Shown in pieces: positions 4,153 to 62,760 of a stretch of DNA of 64,000 nucleotides (within the stretch, counting starts at the first letter, position 1; each line of letters opens with the position of its first letter). A program made the translations under genes and the position numbers. This DNA comes from Candidatus Woesearchaeota archaeon (GTDB lineage: Archaea > Nanobdellota > Nanobdellia > Woesearchaeales > JABGUJ01), in the NCBI GenBank assembly GCA_018646625.1, contig JABGUJ010000001.1, positions 5,534 through 69,533 on the forward strand, in the 5' to 3' direction. The notes under the pieces are model-generated. The model worked only from the letters and a program-made list of their open reading frames with translations, made no database searches and was not told the DNA's origin.

Positions 4153-4167
4153 TTTCCATTACCTCCA

Positions 4168-4482: not shown

Positions 4483-4483
4483 T

Positions 4484-5796: not shown

Positions 5797-6204
5797 ATGA
5801 AATTCATTAGCCACAAAATCACGATAGTGAGCAGCAACAAACCAGCAGAAAGCACATTAAACGATGAACTTCAATGGCTCGGCACAACTTTAGGCTTATT
5901 TGGTAACAGAGACAAAGACAATTCTTGCTTTAGAATATTTATCGAGCTTCTAAAAAGCACAAGAAGAAACAAAGCAATGAGCAGCGATGCAATCTCACTA
6001 AAGCTAAATCTTTCTCGAGGAACGGTTGTACATCACCTAAACAAAATGATGCAATCAGGAATAGTATTAAGAGAAGGTAACACATACGCATTAAGAGCAA
6101 ACACACTACAGGCAGTGATCGAAGAAGTACAAAAAGACGTTAACAGAACATTTTACGATATGATGCAAATTGCTAAAGAAATAGATGATGGCCTAGGCAT
6201 ATAG
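5797..6204 (+). CDS. Winged-helix transcriptional regulator (putative heat-shock operon regulator)
   Basis: HTH-like segment SLKLNLSRGTVVHHLNKMMQSGIVLREG; divergent from grpE across the palindromic region. Confidence 0.4.
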   Translation: MKFISHKITIVSSNKPAESTLNDELQWLGTTLGLFGNRDKDNSCFRIFIELLKSTRRNKAMSSDAISLKLNLSRGTVVHHLNKMMQSGIVLREGNTYALRANTLQAVIEEVQKDVNRTFYDMMQIAKEIDDGLGI

Positions 6205-6256
6205 ACTTCTCAATTCTAAGAAAAGTTTAAATAAACCATAATTCATAGAGAAATAA

Positions 6257-23896: not shown

Positions 23897-25033
23897 TTAA
23901 ACAAAAACAAATTTTTCTTTTTCTACCATTTTTATTGCAAGAGGCTTAGACACATCTCCAAATTCATCGAACGTAGTCAATCCTCCGACACCCCTATAGT
24001 CAGTAACACCATATAACTCATCTCTAATACAGATAGAGTCTTGGCCACAAACTTCTAGAGCTAAAGCAATAATCATAACAGCATCATAGCTATCTGCTGC
24101 AGTTCTCTCAGGCAAATCACCATAACGAGTAACAAAGTCATCAACAAAATCACCAATGATCATATCATCACTCTCAGGATCGAATGCAGGTGCAGTGTAA
24201 AGTATACCATCAGCCGCTTCACCAGCCACATCAAGTAAATCTTGACTTTCAATAATCACAGGCGCTAAGATTTGTGATTCAATACCCAATTCTTTTGCTT
24301 GTTTAACAGCCAACTCAAGTGACAAACCAGCAAAATAAACAACATCCGAATCGGATGACTTAATCTTAATCAACTGTGTTCTAAAATCATTAACAGATTT
24401 ATCATAAGACTCCTGCACAATAACCTCACCACCCAGTTCCCTAAATCTTGTAACAAACGCATCATTGTAATCTACACCATTAGCTAAATTCAAAAACAAC
24501 GTCGACGCAGTCCTCGCACCCAACACATCATAAGCATACTCAGCCATATACTTTCCATGTACATCTCCACTTATACTGTTCCTGAAAACAAAATCTCCTG
24601 CATCACGAATTCTAGGAGCAGATGCAACCGTAGAAAAAACAACAGTTTGCGAGATCTCAGCAACTGGAGCTACAGCCATAACGTTTGATGAACTTGTAGG
24701 ACCAATAACAACAGAAACTTTGTCATTATCAATTAATTTTCTAAGTGCCAACAAAGCCCTAGTCTTATCAAACATACTATCCTCATACACAACTTCTAAT
24801 CTTTTACCGCTAATGCCGCCTTTAGAATTAATTTCTTCAACAGCTAAATCAACACCTTTTCTAACATTCTCTGCATGCCATGCCGCCTTCCCAGTAAAAG
24901 GTTGAACCGCACCGATCTTGATAACATCATCTTCAACAACTTGAGCAGTAATTTGACTTGAACCGCAACCACCCAAAATAATGATCATAAATAAAGCTAA
25001 AGCTATCTTAAATTTCATTTGTAGTACCTCCAA
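23897..25033 (-). CDS. LivJ-like (Peripla_BP_6) solute-binding lipoprotein, orphan (cassette 1)
   Basis: Lipobox ILGGCGSS; N-terminal IKIGAVQPFTGKAAWHAENVRKGVDLAVEEINSKGGISGKRLEVVYEDS typical of the Leu/Ile/Val-binding family. Confidence 0.75.
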   Translation of the reverse strand: MEVLQMKFKIALALFMIIILGGCGSSQITAQVVEDDVIKIGAVQPFTGKAAWHAENVRKGVDLAVEEINSKGGISGKRLEVVYEDSMFDKTRALLALRKLIDNDKVSVVIGPTSSSNVMAVAPVAEISQTVVFSTVASAPRIRDAGDFVFRNSISGDVHGKYMAEYAYDVLGARTASTLFLNLANGVDYNDAFVTRFRELGGEVIVQESYDKSVNDFRTQLIKIKSSDSDVVYFAGLSLELAVKQAKELGIESQILAPVIIESQDLLDVAGEAADGILYTAPAFDPESDDMIIGDFVDDFVTRYGDLPERTAADSYDAVMIIALALEVCGQDSICIRDELYGVTDYRGVGGLTTFDEFGDVSKPLAIKMVEKEKFVFV

Positions 25034-25139: not shown

Positions 25140-25838
25140 ATGAAAGAAGCGCTAAGAGAGTATGGGCTTTCAGACAACGAAGCAAACGTATATCTAGCAG
25201 TTCTAAAGTTAGGAGAATCACCCGTAACAGATATAGCCAACAAAGCCAACACTTACAGAACCTTAACGTACGAAGTCCTAAAATCATTAGAAGACAAAGG
25301 TTTAGTCAGCTCAGTAATAAGAGATAAGAAAAAACATTTTATTGTAGCAAGCCCTGAAAAATTATTACAAGGATTAAAAGAAAAAGAAAGAAGAATTCAA
25401 GAAATCATGCCAGACCTATTATCAATTCACAAATCTGTTTCTATTAAACCGACAATGACCGTATATTCAGGTACAGAAGGAATCAAAAATATTTTCCAAG
25501 ACATTCTTAACGTTGGAGAGGATTTCATAGCCATTGCATCAGTTGAACAAGTCAGATCAAAAATTGATTTTATGTTTAAACACTTCATATTAAAAAGAGT
25601 TGAACTGAAAATGAAGGCTAAACTAATTATTGACAAAGAACCACTAACAAAAGAACTCACAGAGTACAAAGTAATGGATTTTAGTGTACCAACCCTTCTA
25701 TATGTATACGCAAATAAAGTTGCAGTAATAAATGTTGGAACTGAATTAGTAGGAATGATAATTGAAAGTGAGGATTACGCTAAAACACAAAAAATGATGT
25801 TTGATTGGATGTGGAACACAGCTAAGAGTAAGCCATAG
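25140..25838 (+). CDS. TrmB-family HTH transcriptional regulator, short form (cassette 1)
   Basis: N-terminal LREYGLSDNEANVYLAVLKLGESPVTDIANKANTYRTLTYEVLKSLEDKGLVSS matches the TrmB HTH. Confidence 0.7.
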   Translation: MKEALREYGLSDNEANVYLAVLKLGESPVTDIANKANTYRTLTYEVLKSLEDKGLVSSVIRDKKKHFIVASPEKLLQGLKEKERRIQEIMPDLLSIHKSVSIKPTMTVYSGTEGIKNIFQDILNVGEDFIAIASVEQVRSKIDFMFKHFILKRVELKMKAKLIIDKEPLTKELTEYKVMDFSVPTLLYVYANKVAVINVGTELVGMIIESEDYAKTQKMMFDWMWNTAKSKP

Positions 25839-26952
25839 GAATACTATTTCTAATAACTTTAGGAGCTAAAACTTTACCAAAACCGCCAGTAACAGAATCA
25901 TAGTCTAAAACACCAGACGCACCTTGATAATTTCTCAACATTGCAACATACGCGCCTAAACAATCACTATTGAACTTAGAATTTTCACATTTGACTAATG
26001 CATTCTTCAATATCATCAATGCATCATAGCTATCTCTATTAACAATACCACTACTACGATTATAACGAGACATAAACTCAGACTCAAACCCTTTATCAAC
26101 AATACCAGAATAAACATACAATACCCCTTCATCAGCACCAGCCGCACCTTGAATCTCGTACGGTTCCTCGACAGCCATATCAGACAACAAAGTTAAATTC
26201 AAACCCAACTCCCTCATCTGATTAAATATTAATCCGCCCCTACCATAAAGAACAAGTATTGCATCAGCACCAGATTCAGAAATCTTAGCTAACCGAGTTC
26301 TAAAATCAGAATCCGAATAATCATAACTTTCAACAACTGTCAACTCACCACCTAAATTCCTCAACGTACTACCAAAAGCCCCAATATAAGCTTGCGCCCA
26401 ATCATTGTCAATGTGAATCACACCCACTTTTCGAACACCAGACTCAAAAGCAACTTTAGCCAATTCTTCACCTTCGCGACCTATCAAAAATCTCGTACTA
26501 AAATAATATTTAGTCAACTTACCAAAATTATCCCCAGGAGTAATTAGAAAAACTTTTTTCTCATCCACCAAATTTGCCGCAGCTTTAACAGAAGAACCAC
26601 AAAATGGACCCAACAAAGCAACAACATCATCCATCTCAACTAATTTATGAACGGCATTAACAGTATTCTGAGGTCTACAACCATCATCTTCGTAAACCAA
26701 CTCAATTAATCTACCATTAACACCACCTAAAGAATTAATTTCTTCGAGAGCCATTTCAAATCCGTCCCGCATACGTTCACCATAAAACGCAATCGGACCT
26801 GCAAAAGGACCTACCACTCCAACCTTAATCGGCTCTAGCTCCACACTCTCCTCTACAACATTATTAGAACAACCTACAACAAACAAAAGCAACAAAATCA
26901 TAAAAAATGCTAGTCTCATAGTATATTCATTAACAGAAGCATATTTAAACAT
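25822..26952 (-). CDS. LivJ-like solute-binding lipoprotein, orphan (extra copy)
   Basis: Lipobox VVGCSNN; IKVGVVGPFAGPIAFYGERMRDGFEMALEEINSLGGVNGRLIELVYEDD. Confidence 0.75.
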   Translation of the reverse strand: MFKYASVNEYTMRLAFFMILLLLFVVGCSNNVVEESVELEPIKVGVVGPFAGPIAFYGERMRDGFEMALEEINSLGGVNGRLIELVYEDDGCRPQNTVNAVHKLVEMDDVVALLGPFCGSSVKAAANLVDEKKVFLITPGDNFGKLTKYYFSTRFLIGREGEELAKVAFESGVRKVGVIHIDNDWAQAYIGAFGSTLRNLGGELTVVESYDYSDSDFRTRLAKISESGADAILVLYGRGGLIFNQMRELGLNLTLLSDMAVEEPYEIQGAAGADEGVLYVYSGIVDKGFESEFMSRYNRSSGIVNRDSYDALMILKNALVKCENSKFNSDCLGAYVAMLRNYQGASGVLDYDSVTGGFGKVLAPKVIRNSIPMAYS

Positions 26953-26971: not shown

Positions 26972-27622
26972 ATGACACTTATTGTAGGTATTGACGAAGC
27001 AGGACGTGGACCAGTCATCGGACCATTAGTTATTGCAGGGGTAATGATCAATGAAAAAGACGAACCAAAACTAATCAAATTAGGCGTAAAAGATTCTAAA
27101 CAACTTACGGAAAAAAGAAGAAATGAGTTATTTCAAGAGATTAAAGACTTAGGCGTAGAATATGAAATTCTAATCATACATCCAGAAGAAATTGATGAAA
27201 CTCTAAGAAGTCCATCATCTAACTTAAACTGGTTAGAAGCAGACAAATCTGTAGAAATAATAAAAAAATTAAAACCTGATGGCGTCATATTAGATTGTCC
27301 ATCAACCGTTCCAGAAAAATACAAACAATATGTTGAACAAAAACTCAAAGACAAAACGAACGTGATTGCAGAACATAAAGCAGACGATACATATCCGGTA
27401 GTCAGTGCAGCTTCTATCTTAGCAAAAGTAACAAGAGACGCAGAGATTGAAGCAATAAAAAAGAAATACGGAGACTGCGGATCAGGCTATCCTTCAGATC
27501 CTAAAACTCAAGATTTTCTTAAGAAAAATTTTAAGAAATTTCCTGAAATATTCAGACAAACTTGGGAAAGTTACAAAAATATAATAAGAAAAAAAGAACA
27601 AAAAGGTTTAGGAGATTTTTAA
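26972..27622 (+). CDS. rnhB: Ribonuclease HII
   Basis: IVGIDEAGRGPVIGPLVIAGV catalytic motif and C-terminal SAASILAK motif. Confidence 0.88.
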   Translation: MTLIVGIDEAGRGPVIGPLVIAGVMINEKDEPKLIKLGVKDSKQLTEKRRNELFQEIKDLGVEYEILIIHPEEIDETLRSPSSNLNWLEADKSVEIIKKLKPDGVILDCPSTVPEKYKQYVEQKLKDKTNVIAEHKADDTYPVVSAASILAKVTRDAEIEAIKKKYGDCGSGYPSDPKTQDFLKKNFKKFPEIFRQTWESYKNIIRKKEQKGLGDF

Positions 27623-28755
27623 GCATCTACAAACTCGCCATCCCTAAACACTTTCAAGATAAAATCGCTTTCATCTCTTATAACATCTCCATTGTGATCA
27701 AATCTAAGACGACCAGAAGAACCTTCATGATCTACCCCGTATAATCCGTTTTTTATACAGACCGGATCTTCACCACACTGCTCTAACAACCCGGCATAGA
27801 TATATACAATATCATAAGCCAAGTAAGGATGAATTGTTGGTTCCTTCCCAGCAATCTCAATATATTTCTCTCGAAAACGTTTAGTCTTAGGATTATCGCT
27901 CTCCATATCAAACTCATAAAAGGAATATATTCCTTCAGCAGCCTCTCCCGCAATCTGATAAACTTCAGGACCCCACGAAGACGGATTAATCATAAATGGA
28001 ACATCAATACCCAACTCTCTTGCTTGTTTAACTATCAGACCCCCTTCTTCTGAATGAGACACAAAAAACATAACATCAGGATCACCCGACTTTATTTTCA
28101 AAAGATAAGTTCTAAAATCATGATCTCCGGTCTCAAACTTTTCATAAGCAATAATCTCGCCGCCCAACTCTTCAAACTTCTTCACAAAAGCATCTCCTAA
28201 CCCAACACCATAATCAGAGTTCTTCACAATAACTGCAGCTTTCTTAGCATTAAGAACTGAAACCGACTTTTCAGCAATCTTAAAAGCTTCAACATCGCCA
28301 GCAACCTTGGCCCTAAAAGTAAAATCGCCAGCATATCTCAAGTGAGGAACCGCAGAACCCGGAGTAAATATAGGAATTTGTGATTGCTCAGCAAATGGCG
28401 CAATGTACAAACTATTAACAGTCACATCACTTATCACTGCACTAACACCTCTTGCGGCTAGACTTTGAAATGCTTTTATCGCTTCCTTAGGTTGAGCCAT
28501 ACTATCTTCCATAATAATCTCTAAACGTTTACCATTTATTCCACCATTAGAATTAATTTCATCTTGCGCAATCTGCACGCCTCTCCACACCCTAACACCA
28601 TAAGAATCAGAATTCGCCCCACTCATTGGCATGACCGCCCCAATAGTATAAACTTCTTCTTGCTTAACTACTTCACCAGTAACCCCACATCCAACTATAA
28701 ACATCAAAGCTAACGCTACTAACAATAATCTTAATTTCATTTTTACCTCCAACAA
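27619..28755 (-). CDS. LivJ-like solute-binding lipoprotein, orphan (cassette 2)
   Basis: Lipobox IVGCGVTG; YTIGAVMPMSGANSDSYGVRVWRGVQIAQDEINSNGGINGKRLEIIMEDS. Confidence 0.75.
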   Translation of the reverse strand: MLEVKMKLRLLLVALALMFIVGCGVTGEVVKQEEVYTIGAVMPMSGANSDSYGVRVWRGVQIAQDEINSNGGINGKRLEIIMEDSMAQPKEAIKAFQSLAARGVSAVISDVTVNSLYIAPFAEQSQIPIFTPGSAVPHLRYAGDFTFRAKVAGDVEAFKIAEKSVSVLNAKKAAVIVKNSDYGVGLGDAFVKKFEELGGEIIAYEKFETGDHDFRTYLLKIKSGDPDVMFFVSHSEEGGLIVKQARELGIDVPFMINPSSWGPEVYQIAGEAAEGIYSFYEFDMESDNPKTKRFREKYIEIAGKEPTIHPYLAYDIVYIYAGLLEQCGEDPVCIKNGLYGVDHEGSSGRLRFDHNGDVIRDESDFILKVFRDGEFVDA

Positions 28756-31034: not shown

Positions 31035-32198
31035 TCACTCAACCAAAACAAATTCACCATTTCTAACAGTTTTCATTTGTATTGGCCGATAAAGGCCCCA
31101 AATTCCATTCTCAAACTCCAAGTCTCCGCCAGCTCCAGAATATGATTCCATAGACGACAAGTACTCCACTAAACAGTCAGCATCACCATCACAAACTTCA
31201 AAACCTTCAAATAATAACATCAAAACATCATATCCAACAGCACCATAGTACTTATCAACTAATGCCTCACCATAATGCAATTCATACTCAGCTATAAACT
31301 CAGCACTCACAACATCTTCAGGATCAAAGTCATACATAATAGCAGTAACACCATCAGCTGCGTCACCCGCTAAAGCAACAACACTATCATAAGACACCAA
31401 CTCTTGGCCATATACAGGCAACTCAACTTCAAGCTCCTTAATTTGCTTCAACATCATTGCCGCACCAGGAATACCAATTGGTAAAATCAACATCGCTTCT
31501 GGCTCTGCATCTTTAACCTTTAGGATTTGAGTTCTCATATCTGAAGAACCAAAGTCATAAGTCTCAGCAATAATAACATCCCCACCAAGTTTCTCAAACT
31601 CTTCTGTGAAAACTTCATAATAACCAATGGGATAATCATTGTTTTCATAGATTACACCAACAGTTTTTATTTCATGAGAGCTAATCAACTTTGCAGCTTC
31701 AGTTGCAGCCAACCGTGAAGATGCAGATATTCTAAAAACATAGTCACCCGCATATGTTATCTTTGGTGATGCAGCTACAGGAGTAATATGAATTATTTTG
31801 TTTGCTTCCGCAATCGGAGCAACAGCCAATGCAACACTGCTACAAATTCCTGTAACAATTACATCAACTTTATCCACATTAACAAACTTATTTGCAATAA
31901 TTGCAGCCTCACTTGGATTACACCTGCTATCCTCAACTACAATCTCAATCTTCTTACCACCCATATTGATCTGATCTAAAGCCAACAAAAGGGATTTTTC
32001 AACAGGATAACCAACACTAGCCAACGGCCCGGTCTGAGGAACCATGAATCCAACCTTAACTACATCTTTCTCAACTTTTACAACTTCACCAGTAACTGTA
32101 CCACAACCAGTAAATACGCTAAACACTAACAATAAAGCTACCGCTAAAACAATCAGTTTATTCATTTTAAGCCTCCAGATGACCTCTTTAGAAGCCAA
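31035..32198 (-). CDS. LivJ-like solute-binding lipoprotein, orphan (cassette 3)
   Basis: Lipobox FTGCGTVTG; VKVGFMVPQTGPLASVGYPVEKSLLLALDQIN...KIEIVVEDS. Confidence 0.75.
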   Translation of the reverse strand: MASKEVIWRLKMNKLIVLAVALLLVFSVFTGCGTVTGEVVKVEKDVVKVGFMVPQTGPLASVGYPVEKSLLLALDQINMGGKKIEIVVEDSRCNPSEAAIIANKFVNVDKVDVIVTGICSSVALAVAPIAEANKIIHITPVAASPKITYAGDYVFRISASSRLAATEAAKLISSHEIKTVGVIYENNDYPIGYYEVFTEEFEKLGGDVIIAETYDFGSSDMRTQILKVKDAEPEAMLILPIGIPGAAMMLKQIKELEVELPVYGQELVSYDSVVALAGDAADGVTAIMYDFDPEDVVSAEFIAEYELHYGEALVDKYYGAVGYDVLMLLFEGFEVCDGDADCLVEYLSSMESYSGAGGDLEFENGIWGLYRPIQMKTVRNGEFVLVE

Positions 32199-33939: not shown

Positions 33940-36900
33940 TTGACTAAGATAAATAAATTGGTTATGAGGGGTTTCAAGAGCTTCGCTAAGAAGACAGAAC
34001 TCATCTTTGGAGATGATTTTAACGTCATTCTTGGCCCCAACGGATCAGGAAAATCTAATGTTCTAGACGCCCTATGCTTTGTATTAGGCAAGTCAAGTGC
34101 AAAAGCACTTAGAAGTGAAAAATCCGCCAACCTAATCTATAACGGTGGCAAGAGTAAAAAACCAGCATCCGAAGCAGAAGTTAGTATCTATTTCGACAAC
34201 ACAAAAAAAGAACTACCTACTGAAGAAGATCAAGTTAAGATCACAAGACTTGTAAAACCAAGCGGACAAAGCGTATACAAAATAAATGACGTAACAAGAA
34301 CTCGACATCACATCATAGAACTTCTAAGCATAGTGAAAATTAATCCTGATGGTTATAACATTATACTCCAAGGAGACATTGTGCGATTCTGTGAAATGTC
34401 ACCCAACGATCGTAGAGTTCTAATTGAAGATATATCTGGAATTGGCATGTATGAAGAAAAGAAGAACAAAGCCATAAATGAACTAAACAAAGTTGAAGAA
34501 AGACTAAAAGAAGTAGAAATTATACTATCAGAAAGAGAATCAAGACTTAAAGATCTAAAGAAAGAAAGAGATCAAGCACTAGCATTCAATGACCTTAACC
34601 AAAAAATAACCCAGAACAAAGCAACTTACATTTACAAGAACATAAAAAACAAACAAGAATCTGTTGATAAACAAGACAATAGAATTAGAAAAGAAAGAGA
34701 AGAACTAGACAAAGCAAATGGAGAAATCCAGAAAATCAAATATCTAATAGAACAAAAGAAGAAAGAAATTGAAGAAATTAATAAAGAAATTGAACAGAAA
34801 GGCGAGAAAGATCAAGTCACAATCCATAAACAAGTAGAAGAACTAAAAATTGATCTGGCAACATCTACAGATAAAGTCAAGAATCACGAAAATGAGATCG
34901 TGAAACTTAATACAAGAAAAGAAAATGTTAACCGAAGCCTGGCAGAGATACAAGCCAAAATAGATACCCTCTTCCAACAAAGAAATGATACTAAGAAATC
35001 GTTCCAGTCTGCTGCAAATCTAAAAGAAGAGATTGAAAAGAAAATTAAAGACTTTAAGAAGAAGAATAATCTCGATAACCTTGGAGACATAGAGAAAGAA
35101 GTTGACATCCTTGACACAGATGCAGAAGCTAAACAAAAAGAAATTCAAGATGCAAGACAGCAACAGCAAAACCTTCTAAGAGAAAAAGATAGAATTGAGA
35201 TGCAAATTCAATCTGTGGACGAGAAGATAAACAAAGTATTAGAGCTACAAAAAGAAAACAAATCTCAACTAGAAGAACTCAAATATAAGAAAGAAGAATT
35301 CAAGAAAACCACATCACAATTATCAAAGAGAATAAATGACGATTCAAGCTACGCCGCTCAATTAGGGGAATCCAGAAAAAAATTAATGGTGGCCAACGAA
35401 GAGCTAGCTAAACTAAGAAACAGAAGTGTAGGAATTCAAGAAAAGATAGCAGGAAACATCGCACTTAAAAGAATATTAGAAGAAAAGAAAAGCATCCCCG
35501 GGATCTACGGCACTGTCTCCGAGTTAGGAGAAGTTCAAACCAGATACTCTTTAGCACTAGAAGTCGCTGCGGGAGCTAAAATCAAAAGCGTAGTAGTAGA
35601 AAGCGACGCAGTTGCCTCTAAATGCATCTCATTCCTTAAAGAAAATAAATTAGGTATTGCAACATTTTTACCATTAAACAAAATTAAAGGCAGAACTAGC
35701 GACCCCAAAGTCAAAGTATTATCAAGATCAAATGGGGCACACGGCCTAGCCATTGATTTAATCACGTACGATTCAAAGTTCAAGAATGTATTTGAATACG
35801 TTTTCTCAGATACGGTGGTCGTTGAGAACATCACAACAGCAAGAAGAATTGGGATTGGTTCTGCTAAAATGGTTACTCTTGATGGAGATACGGCAGAGGT
35901 ATCAGGAGCAATGCAAGGCGGTTTTAGAAAACGAGAGAAAGGTTTAGGATTTGTAGAAAAAGAAGTATCAAGATCACTGAAACAATATGAAAAAGTCTCA
36001 GAAGAGATGGAAATAAAGATATCCTCAATACAAACACAGAAATCTGTCAATGAAGAAGAGATCGTAAAATTAAGAGAATTCAAAGCACATCTAGAAGGAG
36101 ACATAATCAAACTTGAAAAGATACTACATCTGGACTCAGGAGACACAGAAGCTAACAATAAACTAAGAAAAGAACTAGAACAACAAGCAGAAAAGATGGA
36201 CAGCGACATAAACAAAGTCCAGAACACCCTTAGTGGAATGAATCGAGAATTGGCCCAAAACAAGATAGCCAAACAAGAGTTAAGAAACAAGATTAACGAA
36301 CTAAGAAACCCTGTTTTGATTGCAGAATTAAACGCATTTGAAGAGAAAAGAAAAGAACTTAACGAAACCATGATCAAGACAGAAGCAGAGTTAAACAGCA
36401 TCAAAGCCCAAGTTAAAAACATATTAGAACCAGAAATATCAAACTTAAACAAAGTCAAGAGAGAACTCAAAAGTGAAGAAGAAAACATCACCGAGAGTAT
36501 AAAATCTACTAAAAAACACATTTCTAGCTTGAAAACAGAACTAACATCTAAAGAAAAAGAACAAAAACGATTCCAAGAACAATTTAAAGGATTATTTGGT
36601 CAAAGACAAAAACTTAGTGACGAAGTAAGCAAACAAGAAACTAAATTGGGTACATATGACGAACGTTCAAGACAAGCAGAACACAAAATAAACGCAATCT
36701 CATTAGAAAGTGCAAAGTTCAAAGCAGAACTTGAAGCGCTAAGACAAGAATATGAACCTTACAAAGATGTTGACTTAATTATGAACAAGTCCGTCGACCA
36801 ACTAAAACAAGAGATCTACAACGCAGAACGAAGAATAGAACGTATGGGTAGCATTAACATGAGATCTCTAGAAATCTATGATCAAATTGAAAAAGAATAC

Positions 36901-37434
36901 CATAGCTTAGTTGAAAAGAAAGAAAGACTAAGATTAGAGAAAGAAGATGTAATGGCCATGATGGATGAAATTGAAGGCAAAAAAGTAATACAGTTCATGA
37001 AAACGTTCGAAGGCGTTAATGAACATTTCAAAAACATCTTCCTAGCATTATCCACAAAAGGGGATGCCTCAATGGTTCTAGAAAATAAAGAACAGCCATT
37101 TGACGGCGGCGTATTAATTAAAGTAAAAATCTCAGGTAACAAGTTTATGGACATCAGAAGTTTATCGGGTGGAGAGAAAACAATGACTGCACTAGCATTT
37201 ATCTTCTCAATCCAAGAACACGATCCAGCATCATTCTACATAATGGACGAAGTTGATGCAGCTCTAGACAAAAAGAATTCCGAAAGGCTGGCACAACTAG
37301 TAAAGAAATACTGCGACAGAGCACAATACGTGGTAATAAGCCATAATGATTCAGTAATTTCAGAAGGAGATAGACTATACGGCGTATCAATGGACGAACA
37401 CGGAGTAAGTAAAGTTGTCAGCCTTAAAGTTTAG
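33940..37434 (+). CDS. smc: Chromosome segregation protein SMC
   Basis: N-terminal Walker A GPNGSGKSN, long coiled coils, hinge (IPGIYGTVSELGEV...), C-terminal signature LSGGEKT and Walker B FYIMDEVDAALD; 1164 aa. Confidence 0.9.
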   Translation: MTKINKLVMRGFKSFAKKTELIFGDDFNVILGPNGSGKSNVLDALCFVLGKSSAKALRSEKSANLIYNGGKSKKPASEAEVSIYFDNTKKELPTEEDQVKITRLVKPSGQSVYKINDVTRTRHHIIELLSIVKINPDGYNIILQGDIVRFCEMSPNDRRVLIEDISGIGMYEEKKNKAINELNKVEERLKEVEIILSERESRLKDLKKERDQALAFNDLNQKITQNKATYIYKNIKNKQESVDKQDNRIRKEREELDKANGEIQKIKYLIEQKKKEIEEINKEIEQKGEKDQVTIHKQVEELKIDLATSTDKVKNHENEIVKLNTRKENVNRSLAEIQAKIDTLFQQRNDTKKSFQSAANLKEEIEKKIKDFKKKNNLDNLGDIEKEVDILDTDAEAKQKEIQDARQQQQNLLREKDRIEMQIQSVDEKINKVLELQKENKSQLEELKYKKEEFKKTTSQLSKRINDDSSYAAQLGESRKKLMVANEELAKLRNRSVGIQEKIAGNIALKRILEEKKSIPGIYGTVSELGEVQTRYSLALEVAAGAKIKSVVVESDAVASKCISFLKENKLGIATFLPLNKIKGRTSDPKVKVLSRSNGAHGLAIDLITYDSKFKNVFEYVFSDTVVVENITTARRIGIGSAKMVTLDGDTAEVSGAMQGGFRKREKGLGFVEKEVSRSLKQYEKVSEEMEIKISSIQTQKSVNEEEIVKLREFKAHLEGDIIKLEKILHLDSGDTEANNKLRKELEQQAEKMDSDINKVQNTLSGMNRELAQNKIAKQELRNKINELRNPVLIAELNAFEEKRKELNETMIKTEAELNSIKAQVKNILEPEISNLNKVKRELKSEEENITESIKSTKKHISSLKTELTSKEKEQKRFQEQFKGLFGQRQKLSDEVSKQETKLGTYDERSRQAEHKINAISLESAKFKAELEALRQEYEPYKDVDLIMNKSVDQLKQEIYNAERRIERMGSINMRSLEIYDQIEKEYHSLVEKKERLRLEKEDVMAMMDEIEGKKVIQFMKTFEGVNEHFKNIFLALSTKGDASMVLENKEQPFDGGVLIKVKISGNKFMDIRSLSGGEKTMTALAFIFSIQEHDPASFYIMDEVDAALDKKNSERLAQLVKKYCDRAQYVVISHNDSVISEGDRLYGVSMDEHGVSKVVSLKV

Positions 37435-53735: not shown

Positions 53736-54860
53736 CTATTCAACAACCACAAAACCGTTCTCCGTTATTTGTTTAACAAAAACTTCTCTTTCTGCCACTT
53801 GTTCTTCTGTAAATGAGAACACACCACTCGCCCCGTTATAATCAAACACATTTCGACTTTCTGAAACCATACAATCAACACTGTCACAATTACTACCAAT
53901 TCCGGCCATTAACATAATTGCATCATAAGCAAACGCGGCGTTCATCTCAGGCTCTTCGCCGTATTTCACCTCATACCTGACCGCAAAATCACTTTCATCG
54001 ACCCTAAACGGATAAGTATATGTAACCCCATATGCGCTTTTACCAACAGTATTAACTAACAATTTTGTTTGCGATAACCAAGGACCAATAAATTTAACAT
54101 CCACATCATATTCGCCAGCCTGTTTTAACAGATTTGCAAAATGAGGAGGATTAAATGAAGTAAAGATTGCCTCAGTTCTATGTTCTTTTGCTTTCAACAA
54201 AGCCGTTCTCAAATCAGCAGATTCAAATTTATCAACAGATTCAATAATTGTTATTTCACCACCATTTTGTTCAAAAGCACGTTGAAAATGTTCTCTATAA
54301 CTTTGTCCGAAAAAATCATGTTGATGAAAAATCGCAACCTTAGTTACGCCATTATCAATAACGTGCTCCGCAAGTTTATCCATTTCATTCGATATAGCAG
54401 GAGGCATGTTAAACAAATGCGGGTGTTTGCCAATCAAAGGATCGGTTCTTACCGAAATACTATAAGTTAAAGCTTTTCCTTCAGTTATAGGTGCAACAGC
54501 AGGAGTTACTGCGCCACAATATACAATAATCTTGTCCAAACCATCAACATCCAAAAGCTTACTAACTGTTTTAGTACCTTCAGTTGGACTGCACTTATCA
54601 TCTTCAACAATAAGTCGTACCAGCCTATTATTAATTCCACCTGCTCGATTTATATCATCTACAGCCATCTGCGCCCCTTGTAAAGCCCACTCACCATACA
54701 GAGCAACAGGACCCGTTAAAGGTAAACTGAACCCAATCTCAATATCCTCATAAACGCTCTTACCAGTTATGGAACTAGACCCACAACCCATGATTAATAC
54801 TACCACTATCAATATCATAGCCAATTTCACTCTAACCACCAAGTCAAAAGAAAGCAACAA
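53736..54860 (-). CDS. LivJ-like solute-binding lipoprotein, orphan (cassette 4)
   Basis: Lipobox IMGCGSSS; IEIGFSLPLTGPVALYGEWALQGAQMAVDDINRAGGINNRLVRLIVEDD. Confidence 0.75.
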   Translation of the reverse strand: MLLSFDLVVRVKLAMILIVVVLIMGCGSSSITGKSVYEDIEIGFSLPLTGPVALYGEWALQGAQMAVDDINRAGGINNRLVRLIVEDDKCSPTEGTKTVSKLLDVDGLDKIIVYCGAVTPAVAPITEGKALTYSISVRTDPLIGKHPHLFNMPPAISNEMDKLAEHVIDNGVTKVAIFHQHDFFGQSYREHFQRAFEQNGGEITIIESVDKFESADLRTALLKAKEHRTEAIFTSFNPPHFANLLKQAGEYDVDVKFIGPWLSQTKLLVNTVGKSAYGVTYTYPFRVDESDFAVRYEVKYGEEPEMNAAFAYDAIMLMAGIGSNCDSVDCMVSESRNVFDYNGASGVFSFTEEQVAEREVFVKQITENGFVVVE

Positions 54861-55704: not shown

Positions 55705-56733
55705 TCACAAATCTCTATAACGAGCAGCAACATCATCAAAACCAAGAAGACCAGCAATATTTCCACAAACAATTTTTGCAGCACGACGATAAACGCAAGG
55801 ATCATATTCATCAGTTGAAATATCCTCCGAACAATCCTCAAAACGCTTCAAGTCAGATTCAAAAATTGGTTTTAAGTCATCAAAATAAGAGTAACCGTTA
55901 TTTCTACCCAACATCCTAACTAATTCTAGCTGCGAGTACATAACTATTAGACTCCCAGGTTCATCAGCAGTTTGTAGCATTTCTAAAGCACCGTCATAAA
56001 GCGATCTTTCCAACTCAGCAACATCCATACCCAAATCTTTTGCAGAATCATTAGAAAAATAATATAATGATTTTACAGGCACATTAACTCCTCTCAGAAT
56101 ATTATCCATAGGAAACAAAAACATCGCCAAGTTTGAAACAGTATTATCATCATTGCCTAAAATAGAATATACTTTATCAACAAGTCCACGTTCATATGCA
56201 CTCGCATCAACACCTAACTCTTCTGCTTTTAATCTCGCATCTTCAACAAGAGATTGAAAAAAAGAAAAATTCCATTGACTATTAGTACAATCAAACAAAT
56301 CCAAATTAGTACTTGCTTTAGCATAACACTGAGCAACAGGATTATCTCCATCACAGTCAAATCTCCCTGCAAGTGCTTCAGCAACCTTCTTCTCAAATGC
56401 GGCTACATTAATACTAGCACAGGTTTCATTATAAGCTGCAAGATCTTTCTCATATTGAACAATCTCATCAGGAGAAGCATCTTCACTCGGAAGTATAGGT
56501 TCCATAGGCCAACCGTTTTTACCTTCGGCACGCAAACAATCGGACAAATCACTTCTTGCAGAAACCAAATGTCCTAAATGAGCACCATCTTGAGGAAAGG
56601 AAGCAGAACTAGCTGCATGAAATGCACGATCATAAGCATCAAGAACATCAGATTTATCTGGAGACCTCAAAGTCAAAGCCAAAACTGCAGCAGTTATAAG
56701 CGCTCCAATACCTAAATATCTACCTAAAGTCAT
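55705..56733 (-). CDS. Secreted Cys-containing protein of unknown function, Ala/Asp-rich
   Basis: Signal peptide LGIGALITAAVLALTL; composition atypical for this window. Confidence 0.4.
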   Translation of the reverse strand: MTLGRYLGIGALITAAVLALTLRSPDKSDVLDAYDRAFHAASSASFPQDGAHLGHLVSARSDLSDCLRAEGKNGWPMEPILPSEDASPDEIVQYEKDLAAYNETCASINVAAFEKKVAEALAGRFDCDGDNPVAQCYAKASTNLDLFDCTNSQWNFSFFQSLVEDARLKAEELGVDASAYERGLVDKVYSILGNDDNTVSNLAMFLFPMDNILRGVNVPVKSLYYFSNDSAKDLGMDVAELERSLYDGALEMLQTADEPGSLIVMYSQLELVRMLGRNNGYSYFDDLKPIFESDLKRFEDCSEDISTDEYDPCVYRRAAKIVCGNIAGLLGFDDVAARYRDL

Positions 56734-56845: not shown

Positions 56846-58066
56846 CTAAAGCTTAAGAATTCGATCAATTTCTTCTTTAAGGCGTTTTTCATAATCAGTT
56901 TTAGTTTCGCCTTCCCTTTTCTCCTGAGACAATGCACCCATCATCCCTTCAGTCATAATTCTCTCATCTTCAGGAGTCAAATTTTCAACACTAACTTGAC
57001 CAACATGTTCTCGGATCAACTTGCCCTCAACTTCATCAACACTCCCCTGCTCAACTTTGACTTCTTCAAAATCCTCACCAGTCAATTTAGTAGTGTTACG
57101 CATAACAAAATATGCACCAGCACTATCCAAAGTCGAATGAATCATATTAAAATCAATATCTGAAGGCTTACCAGAACTTAACCGACCAACTAATCGCATA
57201 GTAACAATATGATTTGACAAATCTTTCCCGTTAACAAGAGAAAGCAACTCATCTTCAACTTGATTAGGGTTCATCCCAGCACAATCCAATTTAATCTTAA
57301 AAGAAGCATACAATTCAAGAGGAAAATATTCTAACCATTCATCTTTCTCAGTATCAATAAAATATAAACCGCCATGGCCCAAATCTTCGATCTCTTTAAA
57401 ATTGCAAGGAAACAAAGGACCAGGATAAACTATTCGTCCATATCCCTCTTCATTTTTATCAAAGATATAGTGAACGTGTCCACCAGCATAATAATCGAAA
57501 CATTTTGGCAACAAAGATAATGGCGCAGCATCCATCTGCTCTAATTCTTTTGGTTTAAACTCAGACAAAGCAGTATGAAACATAAATATCTTAAACCCAG
57601 TTTCATCTTCAAGATTAGTTTTATCTAAACTTTCATAATAACTTCTCTCCAACATACCTTTCTTACCAATCATCCCAGTAATCTTTGCACCAGTCTTTTC
57701 ATCAACGCTAAATCTTAATATTAATTTATTCTCCTCAACTCCACCTTTAACCACATTAACTGCAAGACCTGCCTCCTCCAACACATCCAACATAGTCTTA
57801 CCAGAAGCTGCAAAATCATGACTTCCTGCAATTAAATAAAATGGAATTGATGCATCCTTTAGTGATTTCAATTTACCAACAACAATTTTTAACAAATCAA
57901 CTGGCGGCATTGCAGTATTAAACAAATCACCAGAAAACAACACAAAATCTACAGCACGAGATAAACATTCATCTATTGCTTTAATGAACGCATCAGTAGA
58001 TGCACTCTTAAGTTTAGGGTCTCTCCAAGAACCAATGTGTACGTCAGCTAAATGTGCAAATCTCAT
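56846..58066 (-). CDS. mre11: DNA double-strand break repair nuclease Mre11
   Basis: Calcineurin-like phosphoesterase motifs LADVHIG, GDLFN, AGSHD, GGHVH. Confidence 0.8.
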   Translation of the reverse strand: MRFAHLADVHIGSWRDPKLKSASTDAFIKAIDECLSRAVDFVLFSGDLFNTAMPPVDLLKIVVGKLKSLKDASIPFYLIAGSHDFAASGKTMLDVLEEAGLAVNVVKGGVEENKLILRFSVDEKTGAKITGMIGKKGMLERSYYESLDKTNLEDETGFKIFMFHTALSEFKPKELEQMDAAPLSLLPKCFDYYAGGHVHYIFDKNEEGYGRIVYPGPLFPCNFKEIEDLGHGGLYFIDTEKDEWLEYFPLELYASFKIKLDCAGMNPNQVEDELLSLVNGKDLSNHIVTMRLVGRLSSGKPSDIDFNMIHSTLDSAGAYFVMRNTTKLTGEDFEEVKVEQGSVDEVEGKLIREHVGQVSVENLTPEDERIMTEGMMGALSQEKREGETKTDYEKRLKEEIDRILKL

Positions 58067-58098
58067 AATACAAAAAAAGTCATAATTACTTATAAAGC

Positions 58099-59616
58099 TT
58101 ACCTAATCGCACTAAAATCTTTCTTAACACTCTCAGAAATTTGTTTCTTAACCAAATCAGAAAATAAAGGAATCTTAATCGGCATCGCAAACTTAGCAAA
58201 ATTAGAAGTTATTATCGCCTCACCCTTATCCAAAGAAGCAATTGTTCTATTATCATTACTCAAATCCTGAGCAGCACTTTCAATAATAGCTTGCCTTTCA
58301 GGTGCCATCTCAATACCTAAAATAATTTTCGTATTCATGTTAGCAAGAATTTGACGAGGAATCAAAGAAGGAAGCTGAGTGATTGCAAACAAACCGACTT
58401 TAAACTTTCGACCCTCTCTAGCAATAGTTGAAAAAATATTAGGACCGCGCTCTAAAGCTTCTTTACCTAAAACACGTGGCGCCTCCTCCAACACAATTGA
58501 AATAACGGGCTTGTCATCCAGTTCCCCTTTAAATTTATAATAACGATATCTCGAAAGGATTTCTGAAGCAATCAAACTTCCAACTAAGATCTCAACACTA
58601 CCACCAAAATTAGAAGTGTCAACAACAACGATCTTACCAAGTTCTAACTCTCGAACTATATCGCCAATAGTCGTCTCTCCAGCACTTAGATCAAAAACAC
58701 CATTACATCCTAATCTGAAGTTTGAAAAACTTAAATCCAATAAACCCATTACCTTTCTCTTAACAACCGCAAGAGTAGCTTCATTAAACAAATTATCTAA
58801 TGGCTTCTCCATAACAATGGCCTCAATCCATTCCCTGCCATATTTTTTATAATAAAACGACAAAGCATCTTTTTGAGGCATACTCCAATCTACTGCACCA
58901 TCAAAATGCTGCGGCTTTAGATTTCTAATATTAATCTTAAGACTCATTGCACCTACTGGCGGATTTCTAGGGGTGTAGTAAACAACACTACCCGAAGATG
59001 GATGGTCCTTCAAACCCAACCCATCTCTACCATAATATTCATCATGTGGATCTAAAACCAACACACCAGCATAACTTTTGTCGACATTATCCCATAAAAT
59101 ACAAGAAGTAAGATTACTTTTACCCCTTCCCGTAGTTGCAGGAACTAAAACGTGATGAGATAGTACACTTTTACCATCCAAATAAACAGGAACATCCAAT
59201 ACTTTACTACCAGAACGTAAATTGCCTACAAAAAAAGGATTTTTTGGACGAGTAATAAACTTAAGATCATCTTTTTCCACTTCACGAACTTTTGAAAAAA
59301 ACGAAGGCATACTTTTAGAAATCTTAACACCAGAAGAATCTACGGTGATTAAACTTTTAAGCAAAGCAAGATTATAATTTCTCAATTCAGAATCAAAGAA
59401 ATTCTCATCAGATCCATCTTCTAATTGCAAACCAGAAACTAATTCCAGATTCTGTTGCGAAATCTGAGAACCAAAAAGTAAATCATAAACTTGCATCATT
59501 ATCTTCTTGCCAGAACTTTCAGCAATCATCAATTCTCCCAGTTCTACATCAACATCACTTTTCTGTCTAACAAGAATCTTAGAAAATTCCCCACCTACAA
59601 TCTGTCCTTTCACCAT
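58099..59616 (-). CDS. herA: HerA-type hexameric ATPase/helicase (FtsK-HerA superfamily)
   Basis: Walker A ATTGRGKS, Walker [10 protein letters not shown], downstream TQ motif (AITQLPS). Confidence 0.75.
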
Positions 59617-59625
59617 TTTAAAGAG

Positions 59626-59799
59626 TTAAAAACCAATAGCAGAACGAACCACATCCCAGTATAAATAAAGTCCCGCACCAAGCAGCACAAGTACCACTAA
59701 CACAACAAGCAAGATTTTAAAGTCAATCGGCTTAGATTTAGCAGAAGCAGTATTCTCTTCAGTTTCAACCTTTGCCGTTTTTTTAGCCTTGCCAAACAT
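59626..59799 (-). CDS. Small single-pass membrane protein (57 aa), absent from the ORF track
   Basis: MFGKAKKTAKVETEENTASAKSKPIDFKILLVVLVVLVLLGAGLYLYW...; sits between the PIN-like gene and herA. Confidence 0.25.
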   Translation of the reverse strand: MFGKAKKTAKVETEENTASAKSKPIDFKILLVVLVVLVLLGAGLYLYWDVVRSAIGF

Positions 59800-60531
59800 T
59801 TATCCAGTCCTCTTGTGCTTTAGAACTACTCTAACTGCTTTGTTTAAATCTCTTTCTGAAATGGCACATCCACTCAGTTTTAAACCCCAAAAAACGCTTT
59901 CTATAAGCTCCCTATTCGCATCAGCAATATCGGGAAGCTTAGGCATATATTGATCAAGAATACCCATGTCATACGCAACTGACATCAACTCAAGAGATCT
60001 TAATACTTTAATATCTCCAACCAGCTCTTTAAACTCTCTCAAACATCTTTTATCTTCTTTGATTTTTGTTCTAAGCTTATGTTGCAATAATTTCCTCAAC
60101 TCATGAGGCGCTTCAATAAGTTTACGCATTGTACGCTCATCGATCACAATCGCTTGAGCACCAGTCAACATTGCACATGCAACAACTTGAACCTCTGCAA
60201 AGTGAACTATAGTAATTGGATGACCTCGCGCAATAAAACACCGATTAGCCAAATCGTTTAACTTCTCAGCCAAATTAGTAATCTCAAGATCATCAAAAAC
60301 AGTAATCACTCCACGTCTGATGTACTTAAGAACTTGCAAAGCTTCAAATTTAAACTTCCGTGTTCGCAACGGTTTCTCAATCACTTCCTTGTAAACTTTG
60401 GGAGTAATAATAAATTCACCCTTAAAACTATTCTTAAGAGGATCCAGAGTCCAAAGAAGATTATTCATTGTTAAACTAATCAAAGGACCAGTATCAAAGA
60501 TCAATGCTTTATGAAAATCTAGAGATTTCAT
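59800..60531 (-). CDS. PIN-like domain protein (putative nuclease), 243 aa
   Basis: N-terminal ALIFDTGPLISL and later acidic residues (AIVIDERT) resemble a PIN fold; could instead be a degenerate NurA-like nuclease. Confidence 0.35.
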   Translation of the reverse strand: MKSLDFHKALIFDTGPLISLTMNNLLWTLDPLKNSFKGEFIITPKVYKEVIEKPLRTRKFKFEALQVLKYIRRGVITVFDDLEITNLAEKLNDLANRCFIARGHPITIVHFAEVQVVACAMLTGAQAIVIDERTMRKLIEAPHELRKLLQHKLRTKIKEDKRCLREFKELVGDIKVLRSLELMSVAYDMGILDQYMPKLPDIADANRELIESVFWGLKLSGCAISERDLNKAVRVVLKHKRTG

Positions 60532-61193
60532 AAATCAAACAACCCCCTAACATATTTCATTCTAGAATCTACAGTAACCCCTTCTTTAGCTGAAGGCATG
60601 TCAACCTTACCAGCATAGTCCATTAATTCCCATTGAGATAAATTAAGAACACTCGCTGCTTGAGCCATGGAAATACCCTTACCATACAACATACTTCCTT
60701 TCTTAATCATAGACTTTTGAAGAACATCTTGAACATAAACTCTAAATTTCTCATCAAACCCAGAAATCAAACCGAAAATGGAATTCATTCTCTCCCTATA
60801 ACGATTATAATCATCATTAGACAAAAGATCATAACACTTTTTCAAATTCTTAGAAACTTTTTTGATAAAATTACCCGCAATTTCGCCACGTTCAATTATT
60901 TTAGAAAGCGCATATATCACCACAGCAACTGAAACAGAATCTTTTTCTTGAAAAATACTGGCTTCGTAAACCGCTTCATCACTAAGTTTCTTAAGATCCC
61001 CTACTTTACCTAACTTAACCAATACTATGGACCGCTTAAGAACTTCAAGAATTTCGCGTTTAACTTCACCCCTCATAACAATAATATCCGTTTGAACAAT
61101 TATAAAGCTTTCGATGAAACTATCGAAAACAGAAGAAAGGGGGCTTGAAAACTTAAAAAACAAAAGGTTTATATAGTAACTTGGCCCCATCAA
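60528..61193 (-). CDS. Hypothetical protein with C-terminal HTH-like segment (true start may be the internal ATG at 61076)
   Basis: GISMAQAASVLNLSQWELMDYAG helix-turn-helix-like; stop overlaps the PIN-like gene start by 4 nt. Confidence 0.3.
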   Translation of the reverse strand: MMGPSYYINLLFFKFSSPLSSVFDSFIESFIIVQTDIIVMRGEVKREILEVLKRSIVLVKLGKVGDLKKLSDEAVYEASIFQEKDSVSVAVVIYALSKIIERGEIAGNFIKKVSKNLKKCYDLLSNDDYNRYRERMNSIFGLISGFDEKFRVYVQDVLQKSMIKKGSMLYGKGISMAQAASVLNLSQWELMDYAGKVDMPSAKEGVTVDSRMKYVRGLFDL

Positions 61194-61262
61194 TTTTTAG
61201 GTTAACCCTGGTTTGGGGCGTTAATTAATTAGTAAAGGTTTGTAAATATAATTGGTGGTTGA

Positions 61263-61895
61263 ATGTTAAATATCGTTCAGAGATTTATGAAAAGATTGGT
61301 GAGACAATTCTTTAAGAAGAAAAAAAAGGTGAAGATCGGGTTGTATGGTCCTCCAAACGGTGGTAAAACAACGCTAGCAAATCGAATCTGCGAAGACTGG
61401 CTCGGAGAAGAGATGGGATCTGTTTCTGCAATTGAACACGAAACTAGAGAAATCAAGATTAAAGAAGAAATTTCTGTAAAATCTGGTAAGAAAGAATTAA
61501 AATTCAACTTAGTAGACACTCCAGGCATTGCAACTAAAATTGATTACGAAGACTTTGTTAAAAAAGGCATGAGTGAAAAGAAAGCCAAACAAAGAGCTAA
61601 AGAAGCAACAAAAGGAGTTATCGACGCAATCAAATGGCTTGATGAAATGGATGTAGTAATCGTAGTTCTAGATGGAACTAAAGACCCATACTCGCAAGTT
61701 AATATTACAATCGTTGGAAATTTAGCAGCAAGGGACATCCCTGTATTAATTGTCTGCAACAAGATGGATCTTAAAAAAGCAAAGAAGAAAAAGATTGAAG
61801 CAGCATTTCCGCAATACGACGTTGTACCAATAAGCGCTAAAACAGGAAAAAACATCGACAAGTTTTACGAAGCACTATTCGTAATAGCAGGATAA
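61263..61895 (+). CDS. Small Ras-superfamily GTPase
   Basis: G1 GPPNGGKTT, G3 DTPG, G4 NKMD, G5 SAK. Confidence 0.7.
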   Translation: MLNIVQRFMKRLVRQFFKKKKKVKIGLYGPPNGGKTTLANRICEDWLGEEMGSVSAIEHETREIKIKEEISVKSGKKELKFNLVDTPGIATKIDYEDFVKKGMSEKKAKQRAKEATKGVIDAIKWLDEMDVVIVVLDGTKDPYSQVNITIVGNLAARDIPVLIVCNKMDLKKAKKKKIEAAFPQYDVVPISAKTGKNIDKFYEALFVIAG

Positions 61896-61914
61896 AAAAA
61901 GAGGTTATTAGAAA

Positions 61915-62358
61915 ATGAGTTTAACTTTGCAATTTGTGCCGTATGGTGAAATAGAAAATCTTGATTCCACCGCAAAGGTAAACAAACTTATCAAGATAGT
62001 AAAAGAAGAAAAGATCATCTTACTAGAAGGAAGAATTGAGAAAAACGAAGAAACCCTTCTTATCAAAAAAACTATGGAAGAGATTGGTCCAAAGTTTAAA
62101 GGAATTGAACTATTTGTGATGTATCCTAAGGATGAAGAAAGCGATCCTATACAGAGATTAAAGAAAAGTGTAGTAGATATGTTACTAGGAAATAGACAGG
62201 GATTAACCATCATAGGCCCTGCAACAATCGTTAAAGAAATAAGAAAAGATCCAGATAAGATACAATTACTAACAAAGAACCTATCAAAAAGAAAGAAAAC
62301 ACCTGCATCAAGATCAAAGTCTACTAAAAAAAAGACTAAGACTAAAAAAAGGAAATAA
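61915..62358 (+). CDS. Conserved archaeal protein, DUF2073-like (assignment from memory)
   Basis: 147-aa ORF 19 nt downstream of the GTPase, Lys-rich C-terminal tail. Confidence 0.4.
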   Translation: MSLTLQFVPYGEIENLDSTAKVNKLIKIVKEEKIILLEGRIEKNEETLLIKKTMEEIGPKFKGIELFVMYPKDEESDPIQRLKKSVVDMLLGNRQGLTIIGPATIVKEIRKDPDKIQLLTKNLSKRKKTPASRSKSTKKKTKTKKRK

Positions 62359-62370
62359 AGGTTTAGATAA

Positions 62371-62760
62371 ATGCCACATCAGTGCGTCAGGTGTAGTGCC
62401 CTATATGATGACGGGGCCCAAGAAATTCTACAAGGTTGCAGTAAGTGCTCTGCCAAAGTTTTCTTCTATATAAGGAAAGACCATTTAAAGAAAACTCAAG
62501 AACAAGTTGAAAAACTCTCTCCCAAAGATAAAGAGCAGATAGAAAAAGACGTAAAAGAAATGGTGGGCAACACCGAACAAGACGCCCCAGTAATTCTCGA
62601 TCTCGAATCCATCAGAGTTAAAAAGCCAGGTAAATTTGAAATAGACTTAGTTAAATTATTCAAAGACGATCCTTTGATCTATAAACTTGCAGATGGTAAA
62701 TACATGATTGACCTTCCAAAAACATTCAAGAAAGGTCTTGACAAATTTGAAGAAAACTAA
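62371..62760 (+). CDS. Zn-ribbon protein, DUF2072-like
   Basis: N-terminal CVRC...CSKC zinc ribbon; 12 nt after the upstream gene. Confidence 0.45.
   Translation: MPHQCVRCSALYDDGAQEILQGCSKCSAKVFFYIRKDHLKKTQEQVEKLSPKDKEQIEKDVKEMVGNTEQDAPVILDLESIRVKKPGKFEIDLVKLFKDDPLIYKLADGKYMIDLPKTFKKGLDKFEEN

Follow-up and report, generated by a model that had tools for sequence, protein, structure and literature searches.

We analysed a 64,000-nt stretch of contig JABGUJ010000001.1 from a Candidatus Woesearchaeota archaeon (the window), which carries a five-gene string on its minus strand: a helix-turn-helix (HTH) gene, a PIN-domain gene, a 57-amino-acid (aa) open reading frame (ORF), herA and mre11, in that order of transcription (Table 1). 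Mre11 is commonly considered to require Rad50 as an obligate partner (SbcD-SbcC in bacteria), and archaeal herA and nurA usually travel with them. At this locus neither rad50 nor nurA accompanies herA and mre11. Our analysis indicates that the string probably consists of two separable two-gene modules in tandem, within a gene order conserved in Woesearchaeota and Nanoarchaeota: one from a broken-up operon and the other a toxin-antitoxin-type pair.

All five ORFs were recovered on the minus strand, and independent gene callers had called the same ORFs on identical metagenomic contigs; the PIN protein is identical to HN419_03000 of Candidatus Woesearchaeota. An earlier sequence-only reading had described herA and mre11 as adjacent and co-directional, as the ORFs, family matches and orthology bear out, and had reported 4-nt start/stop overlaps among the genes upstream. 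Such an overlap occurs at the HTH/PIN junction, where the HTH stop lies over the PIN start, but not at the others: the PIN gene and the 57-aa ORF abut (0 nt), and 9 nt and 32 nt separate the 57-aa ORF from herA and herA from mre11, respectively. That reading also placed the HTH-containing protein at 60528-61193. Its C-terminal UPF0175 HTH was confirmed, but its start is most likely the ATG at 61076 (182 aa) rather than the alternative TTG at 61193 (221 aa), because the gene callers and all homologues use the former. We infer that all five genes are co-transcribed, and the intergenic region upstream of the HTH gene presumably holds promoters for both directions.

Table 1. Features of the herA-mre11 locus and its upstream region (positions in the window)
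Feature	Position	Strand	Description
mre11	56846..58066	-	406 aa; Mre11-family nuclease: nuclease domain, probable capping domain, C-terminal helices
herA	58099..59616	-	505 aa; HerA hexameric-translocase-type ATPase: HAS-barrel and RecA-like core
57-aa ORF	59626..59799	-	charged N-terminus and one predicted transmembrane helix; lineage-specific, significance doubtful
PIN-domain nuclease, COG2405/DUF3368 (VapC-like)	59800..60531	-	243 aa; ~80-residue C-terminal helical extension
UPF0175 (COG2886) HTH partner	60528..61076	-	182 aa; N-terminal six-helix bundle and C-terminal HTH
Divergent intergenic region	61077..61262		186 nt, between the HTH-PIN-herA-mre11 string and arvA (oapA)

The 505-aa protein matched Pfam DUF87 (5.4e-26), with weak matches to the HAS-barrel (E 0.093) and HerA_C families, and its closest solved structure was S. 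solfataricus HerA (4d2i, 1.7e-25). Walker A, Walker B and the arginine-finger segment AREGRKF are invariant in 36-80 HerA orthologues. Identity was 62-70% to the HerAs of 80 related genomes (the clade defined below), 44-55% to 46 HerAs from nurA-herA-mre11-rad50 strings and 53% to the HerA of Methanothermobacter thermautotrophicus. The protein missed the NCBIfam equivalog cut-offs for HerA_Thermprot (102 vs 800 bits) and helicase_HerA (94 vs 970 bits), as expected for a HerA of the DPANN/Methanobacteria type, given that the models take their names from other lineages (Thermoproteota; generic HerA). By motif content and orthology it is a bona fide HerA, and we would expect it to act as a hexameric ATP-driven DNA translocase.

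For the 406-aa protein, family matches included Pfam Metallophos (3e-13) and NCBIfam Mre11_Pyroc (5.6e-28), and the Mre11_Sulfo alignment joined residues 3-346 to profile positions 2-334 of 374 (1.8e-20); its NCBIfam Mre11 matches fall far below the equivalog cut-offs. The closest solved structure was P. furiosus Mre11 (1ii7, 1e-22). The protein is 32-39% identical to Mre11s encoded directly upstream of rad50 in related loci and 38% identical to the Methanothermobacter protein. We checked the five calcineurin-like phosphoesterase motifs (DxH, GDxxH/D, GNHD, H and GHxH), and residues D8/H10, G46-D47, H83-D84, H164 and H197/H199 are invariant in 56/56 clade orthologues. The Asn of motif III is replaced by Ser (Ser82; GSHD instead of the usual GNHD) in all 106 sequences, comprising 56/56 from the clade and 50/50 rad50-linked relatives. 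Because the rad50-linked relatives share it, the substitution is, on this alignment, a family-wide trait that is not linked to the operon rearrangement. These data identify a bona fide Mre11, likely a dimeric Mn2+-dependent nuclease.

A profile search with the window Mre11-like protein returned 371 cluster representatives at E<=1e-30, two of which had informative context: a Thermoplasmatota member and a HerA-Mre11 fusion. The Thermoplasmatota mre11 is followed by an overlapping gene for a zinc-hook Rad50, and Rad50_zn_hook matches were found downstream of mre11 in loci L092 and L093. L093 encodes the 954-aa HerA-Mre11 fusion (149-3013), then a zinc-hook Rad50 (3003-5450) and a 504-aa VRR-NUC-domain protein (5452-6966). 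The fusion is 48% identical to the window HerA; it is a singleton on a 7-kb contig and could be a sequencing or frameshift artefact. The Rad50s of the Thermoplasmatota and fusion loci were then used to fetch 80 metagenomic loci. Wherever there was room on the contig, mre11 of the window's family lay directly upstream of rad50 (51/51) and herA upstream of mre11 (45/45), and a ~365-aa gene above the Pfam NurA (PF09376) threshold lay directly upstream of herA in 40/42. Exact-sequence look-ups assigned some of these contiguous operons to Methanothermobacter thermautotrophicus and Methanobacterium. The order among the nearest relatives is nurA-herA-mre11-rad50, and not the herA-mre11-rad50-nurA order that had been taken as canonical. 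Given their identity to the proteins of these operons, the window herA and mre11 are true representatives of the nurA-herA-mre11-rad50 system of euryarchaeal type.

When species-representative genomes were scanned with a HerA alignment, 558 relatives were retrieved, and the best 80, all species-level genomes, are referred to here as the clade. Clade records mostly carry Woesearchaeota/Nanoarchaeota-type titles. Among the locus records, many (L015, L018-L021, L023 and others) bear the title 'uncultured Methanosarcinales archaeon' and one is labelled 'Aminicenantes bacterium'; these titles are probably automated mislabels, because by gene content and HerA identity (62-69%) the genomes belong with Woesearchaeota/Nanoarchaeota. 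We searched six-frame translations of 1.41 Mb, made up of the window and 94 loci that come nearly all from its clade, with hidden Markov models (HMMs) built for NurA (from 40 sequences) and Rad50 (from 74 sequences). No Rad50 was detected in this 1.41 Mb (0/80 clade loci, within about 10 kb). NurA was detected once (1/80 clade loci), at L020:984-1994 (-), as a full-length protein whose gene is transcribed divergently from herA and has no rad50 beside it. Neither Rad50 nor NurA was found by the same HMM search anywhere in the 64-kb window, nor on the source contig over the ~9.6 kb that follow the window's right edge, and the claim that the pair lacks an adjacent Rad50 or NurA held for both the window and the clade. 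Because rad50 is never found within ~10 kb of herA in the clade and nurA only once, compared to their contiguity in relatives, the operon has been broken up in this clade. Literature searches returned nothing specific on Rad50, Mre11 or HerA in DPANN/Woesearchaeota.

Several candidates for a displaced or hidden partner were rejected. All other matches to the Rad50 and NurA HMMs were to SMC and weak coiled-coil or ABC-like proteins; a weak Rad50-HMM match in L027 covers the coiled-coil part of the model only. The 1164-aa protein encoded at 33940-37434 of the window matched SMC_hinge (4.1e-32), has no zinc hook and scored 41 bits against the Rad50 HMM. As had been proposed, it is not a displaced Rad50; judged by its domains, it is a true SMC. 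A 905-aa inserted protein has no Walker A motif, and the genes that Pfam identified in the herA-mre11 or PIN-herA gaps belong to non-repair families.

Across the clade, the gene order is arvCBA (divergent), followed by HTH-PIN, herA and mre11 on one strand, with gatB and gatA usually downstream of mre11 on the other strand. In 34/39 clade loci with sufficient flank, mre11 lies downstream of herA on the same strand at a distance of up to 8.5 kb; the two genes are directly adjacent in 17/62, with several pairs overlapping by 4 nt. Of the loci with sufficient flank upstream, 19/30 have PIN on the herA strand no more than 8 kb ahead of herA; it is directly adjacent in 17/73, and its HTH partner accompanies it in 43/46 loci. 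By Pfam, the genes inserted between the modules encode CorA, GGDEF, DNA methylase, PurL, radical SAM and deoxyhypusine synthase proteins, along with small helical proteins. Many relatives encode diverse 150-280-aa helical or coiled-coil proteins without Walker A between herA and mre11 on the same strand (for example L014:11558-12379, L018:4905-5693, L044:11526-12317 and L064:11539-12375); the window has none.

The 243-aa protein had been described as either PIN-like or a degenerate NurA, and only the first description survived structure prediction. Its AlphaFold2 model (predicted local distance difference test, pLDDT, 95.4) gave VapC/PIN matches only in a fold search, the NurA HMM did not match, and the degenerate-NurA assignment was rejected. 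Residues ~160-243 form an extra helical domain. The acidic residues D13, E49, E113 and D131 have VapC-like spacing and are invariant or nearly so in 68 homologues. We found 125 homologues, whose named sources are Woese-, Nano- or Pacearchaeota-type apart from one labelled just 'bacterium', and most of those listed carry a precomputed PF11848/DUF3368 match. Within the partner family, 48/58 members match Pfam UPF0175 (PF03683; best E 2.8e-5), with the window copy itself below threshold. UPF0175 has been reported exclusively beside COG2405 PIN genes, and the pair is treated as a toxin-antitoxin system (PMC5499597, PMC2701414). Family membership supports assignment of the HTH/PIN pair to the VapBC-type toxin-antitoxin kind, a known family type, with the PIN protein predicted to be an active metal-dependent ribonuclease that is bound and regulated by its HTH partner. 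A 402-aa protein, P0119, was considered as an HTH-PIN fusion and rejected, since it has no similarity to the HTH protein.

The two pairs also occur apart. The HTH/PIN pair was found without herA in L004 (beside an XPD-like helicase), L006 (beside arvABC) and the Pacearchaeota locus L174 (among ribosomal protein genes), and herA-mre11 was found without the pair in L008, L010 and 13 loci whose upstream flank extends for at least 8.5 kb. Because each occurs without the other, herA-mre11 and HTH/PIN are separable modules. In the Pacearchaeota locus (L174:10001-11761), a gene for a 132-aa low-molecular-weight phosphatase and a 45-aa ORF separate HTH from PIN, with all four overlapping in a string. 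Where both modules are present, PIN is always on the same strand as herA, and in at least seven loci the pair runs over the start of herA, with overlap or near-overlap in L014, L018, L024, L038, L041, L056 and L077. The suggestion of a toxin-antitoxin-like insertion was supported as to family (a COG2405/DUF3368 PIN with a UPF0175 HTH, also found without herA) but not as to a recent insertion: the pair is enlarged, occurs once per locus examined and sits in the same position throughout the clade. It looks vertically inherited and fixed in position, not mobile.

The contiguous HTH-PIN-herA-mre11 string recurs in four other genomes, whereas the full five-gene version does not extend beyond near-identical contigs, the only ones in which the 57-aa ORF was found. 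That ORF is called as a gene on the identical contigs. As had been noted, it precedes herA on the same strand and encodes a transmembrane protein, here with a single predicted helix; it has no homologue among 80 related loci and no significant match in protein-family libraries. In the same slot between the PIN gene and herA, eight related genomes encode a very basic protein of ~77 aa made of two tandem repeats, VAKVGVKKxxGYLYFVDKxGDVSRAKMARGGRKK (L075:9638-9871, L068:9611-9859, L051:9681-9914 and five further loci).

The reading we favour, and regard as probable, is that of two separable modules, drawing on the directly observed family and fold assignments, synteny statistics and separate occurrence of the modules. 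Under it, the locus is a clade-wide operon rearrangement beside a known type of PIN/HTH pair, not a new system. The herA-mre11 pair would be a remnant, occupying the place of the nurA-herA-mre11-rad50 end-resection operon of euryarchaeal type. HerA and Mre11 may open and trim DNA double-strand ends for RadA-mediated recombination, while rad50 and nurA, which we infer to lie elsewhere in the genome, would most likely act in trans or, less likely, be dispensable. In the other module, the PIN ribonuclease would be held in check by its UPF0175 partner and would not be a HerA partner. A physical HerA-Mre11 interaction has been documented in Sulfolobus (PMC2288612), and the natural fusion in L093 is consistent with direct contact between the two proteins. 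The ~60 C-terminal residues of Mre11, which include candidate Rad50-binding helices, can be aligned to the same region in rad50-linked relatives, and the two groups show a similar degree of conservation there. The same is true of the HerA HAS-barrel, the NurA-docking face in characterised complexes, when the clade is compared to operon-bearing relatives. Comparable conservation of these partner-facing regions argues, indirectly, that the usual partners still exist.

Four considerations weigh against this reading. First, the placement of rad50 and nurA elsewhere is an assumption, as our searches covered individual loci of the clade genomes. Second, the position equivalent to His52 of P. furiosus Mre11 (PfMre11) is Asn50 in the window and Asn in 53/56 clade Mre11s, compared to His in 43/50 rad50-linked relatives. 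A PfMre11 H52S mutant has been described as exonuclease-impaired (PMC8824468), and the His-to-Asn change hints at an altered nuclease mode that could go with an altered partnership. Third, the occurrence of the HTH/PIN pair upstream of herA in 19/30 loci, with start overlaps in at least seven, is more linkage than unrelated modules need. Finally, gatB and gatA are also syntenic, so the conserved gene order is weak evidence either way. Because the whole region is a conserved syntenic block, adjacency alone should be interpreted with caution as evidence of shared function.

We consider it unlikely that the clade has truly lost Rad50 and mostly lost NurA, leaving HerA-Mre11 as a self-sufficient helicase-nuclease in which HerA would supply the ATP-driven DNA handling usually provided by Rad50. 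Such a loss would account for the absence of rad50 in cis from all 80 clade loci when it is present in 51/51 relatives, and the strong conservation of clade herA (62-70% identity) is as expected of an indispensable motor. DPANN genomes are, moreover, reduced. The clade-specific Asn at the PfMre11 His52 position, where the H52S mutant is exonuclease-impaired (PMC8824468), fits an Mre11 with changed activity, and a direct HerA-Mre11 interaction is known (PMC2288612) alongside the one HerA-Mre11 fusion. However, that fusion is itself followed by rad50, and the clade Mre11s have kept C-terminal helices that align with, and are conserved much as in, their rad50-linked relatives. NurA beside herA in one clade genome indicates that dispersal does occur in the clade, and absence within 10 kb is silent on the rest of a ~1-2 Mb genome. 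It is doubtful, and in our assessment rather improbable, that a large Woesearchaeota/Nanoarchaeota clade without Rad50 and mostly without NurA processes DNA ends with a two-component HerA-Mre11 system whose Mre11 carries a clade-specific Asn.

The position of the PIN gene raises the alternative that the PIN protein, regulated by its HTH partner, replaced NurA as the HerA-docking nuclease to give an HTH-PIN-HerA-Mre11 machine. We give this little credence. The PIN gene does sit immediately ahead of herA, where 40/42 related operons have nurA, on the same strand wherever both are found and with overlap or near-overlap of the herA start in the seven loci named above, and the contiguous string in four other genomes is as this alternative would predict. 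On the other hand, its fold is that of a VapC-like PIN domain, typical of RNases, and not the RNase-H-like fold of NurA, and its fixed partner is an antitoxin-type UPF0175 protein. The pair persists with no herA nearby in L004, L006 and L174, 13 loci have herA-mre11 with no pair within 8.5 kb, and unrelated genes (CorA, radical SAM, deoxyhypusine synthase) often lie between PIN and herA. An anti-phage or mobile-element defence module of the HerA-effector type, suggested by PADLOC HerA models that match the ATPase (best 7e-27) and by the adjoining toxin-antitoxin-like pair, is effectively refuted, since neither Sir2, DUF4297 nor any other known effector lies next to the ATPase gene and PADLOC matched no effector model in the neighbouring genes, the phosphoesterase has no meaningful PADLOC match, the genes are vertically conserved and syntenic with housekeeping genes (arvABC, gatBA) in 80 genomes, and their nearest relatives by orthology sit in nurA-herA-mre11-rad50 operons.

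Divergent from the string, the window carries the arvA/arvB/arvC (oapA/B/C) operon at 61263-62760 (+), encoding a small GTPase, a DUF2073/OapB protein and the Zn-ribbon protein OapC. In Haloferax, the arvA/B/C genes drive extracellular-vesicle formation (PMC10927574). Among related loci containing arvA, arvCBA is divergent and upstream of herA in 31/35, adjoining either HTH-PIN or herA. Directly downstream of mre11, a 342-aa protein (55705-56733, -) with a hydrophobic segment at its N-terminus matched no family and was found only in near-identical contigs. Elsewhere in the window are five paralogous ~375-aa proteins with lipoprotein-like signals (23897-25033, 25822-26952, 27619-28755, 31035-32198 and 53736-54860), of which the last, the only one checked, has Peripla_BP_6/ANF_receptor domains. 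Two tandem 614-aa double NMT1/THI5-like proteins (16494-20167) lie near these paralogues, and together the substrate-binding proteins form an unusually large set for a small genome. An Rfam scan of the window found two tRNAs and no other RNA match.

Across a whole DPANN clade, herA and mre11 have stayed together at a locus that rad50 and nurA have left, which suggests that, by gene order, HerA-Mre11 is the more tightly coupled pair in this clade. The clade genomes are also a defined set in which to look for Mre11 that functions independently of Rad50. Should rad50 and nurA be encoded elsewhere in them, the locus reflects an ordinary operon rearrangement; if Rad50 has been dispensed with, it would represent a cellular Mre11 working without Rad50. 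The UPF0175-PIN pair, enlarged and fixed in position, may be an example of a toxin-antitoxin-type module becoming a stable and vertically inherited component of a reduced genome.

Among known systems, the closest counterpart of the herA-mre11 module is the euryarchaeal nurA-herA-mre11-rad50 operon, with which it shares the herA-then-mre11 order, strand, tight spacing, intact ATPase and phosphoesterase motifs and the motif III Ser. The clade differs in having no nurA upstream (1/80) and no rad50 downstream (0/80), in the Asn at the PfMre11 His52-equivalent position and, in relatives of the window, in the unrelated genes often inserted between herA and mre11. Bacterial and archaeal HerA-NurA two-component resection complexes whose genes lie apart from those of Mre11-Rad50, as in Deinococcus radiodurans, provide a precedent for unclustered genes and for a HerA with a single dedicated nuclease (PMC8708640), although in the window HerA remains with Mre11 and not with NurA. 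The HTH/PIN module resembles the VapBC-like UPF0175 (COG2886)-COG2405/DUF3368 PIN pairs (SSO1118, PDB 2mdt) in its upstream overlapping HTH gene, its PIN fold with a conserved acidic tetrad and its UPF0175 and DUF3368 matches. Compared to typical pairs of this type, the proteins of the window's clade are enlarged (a 243-aa PIN and a 182-aa partner), and the Pacearchaeota version has two extra genes between the partners. Toxin-antitoxin pairs are usually small, patchy, mobile and often multi-copy, whereas the clade pair is present in one copy per locus examined and is positionally conserved, usually beside arvABC, across a large clade.

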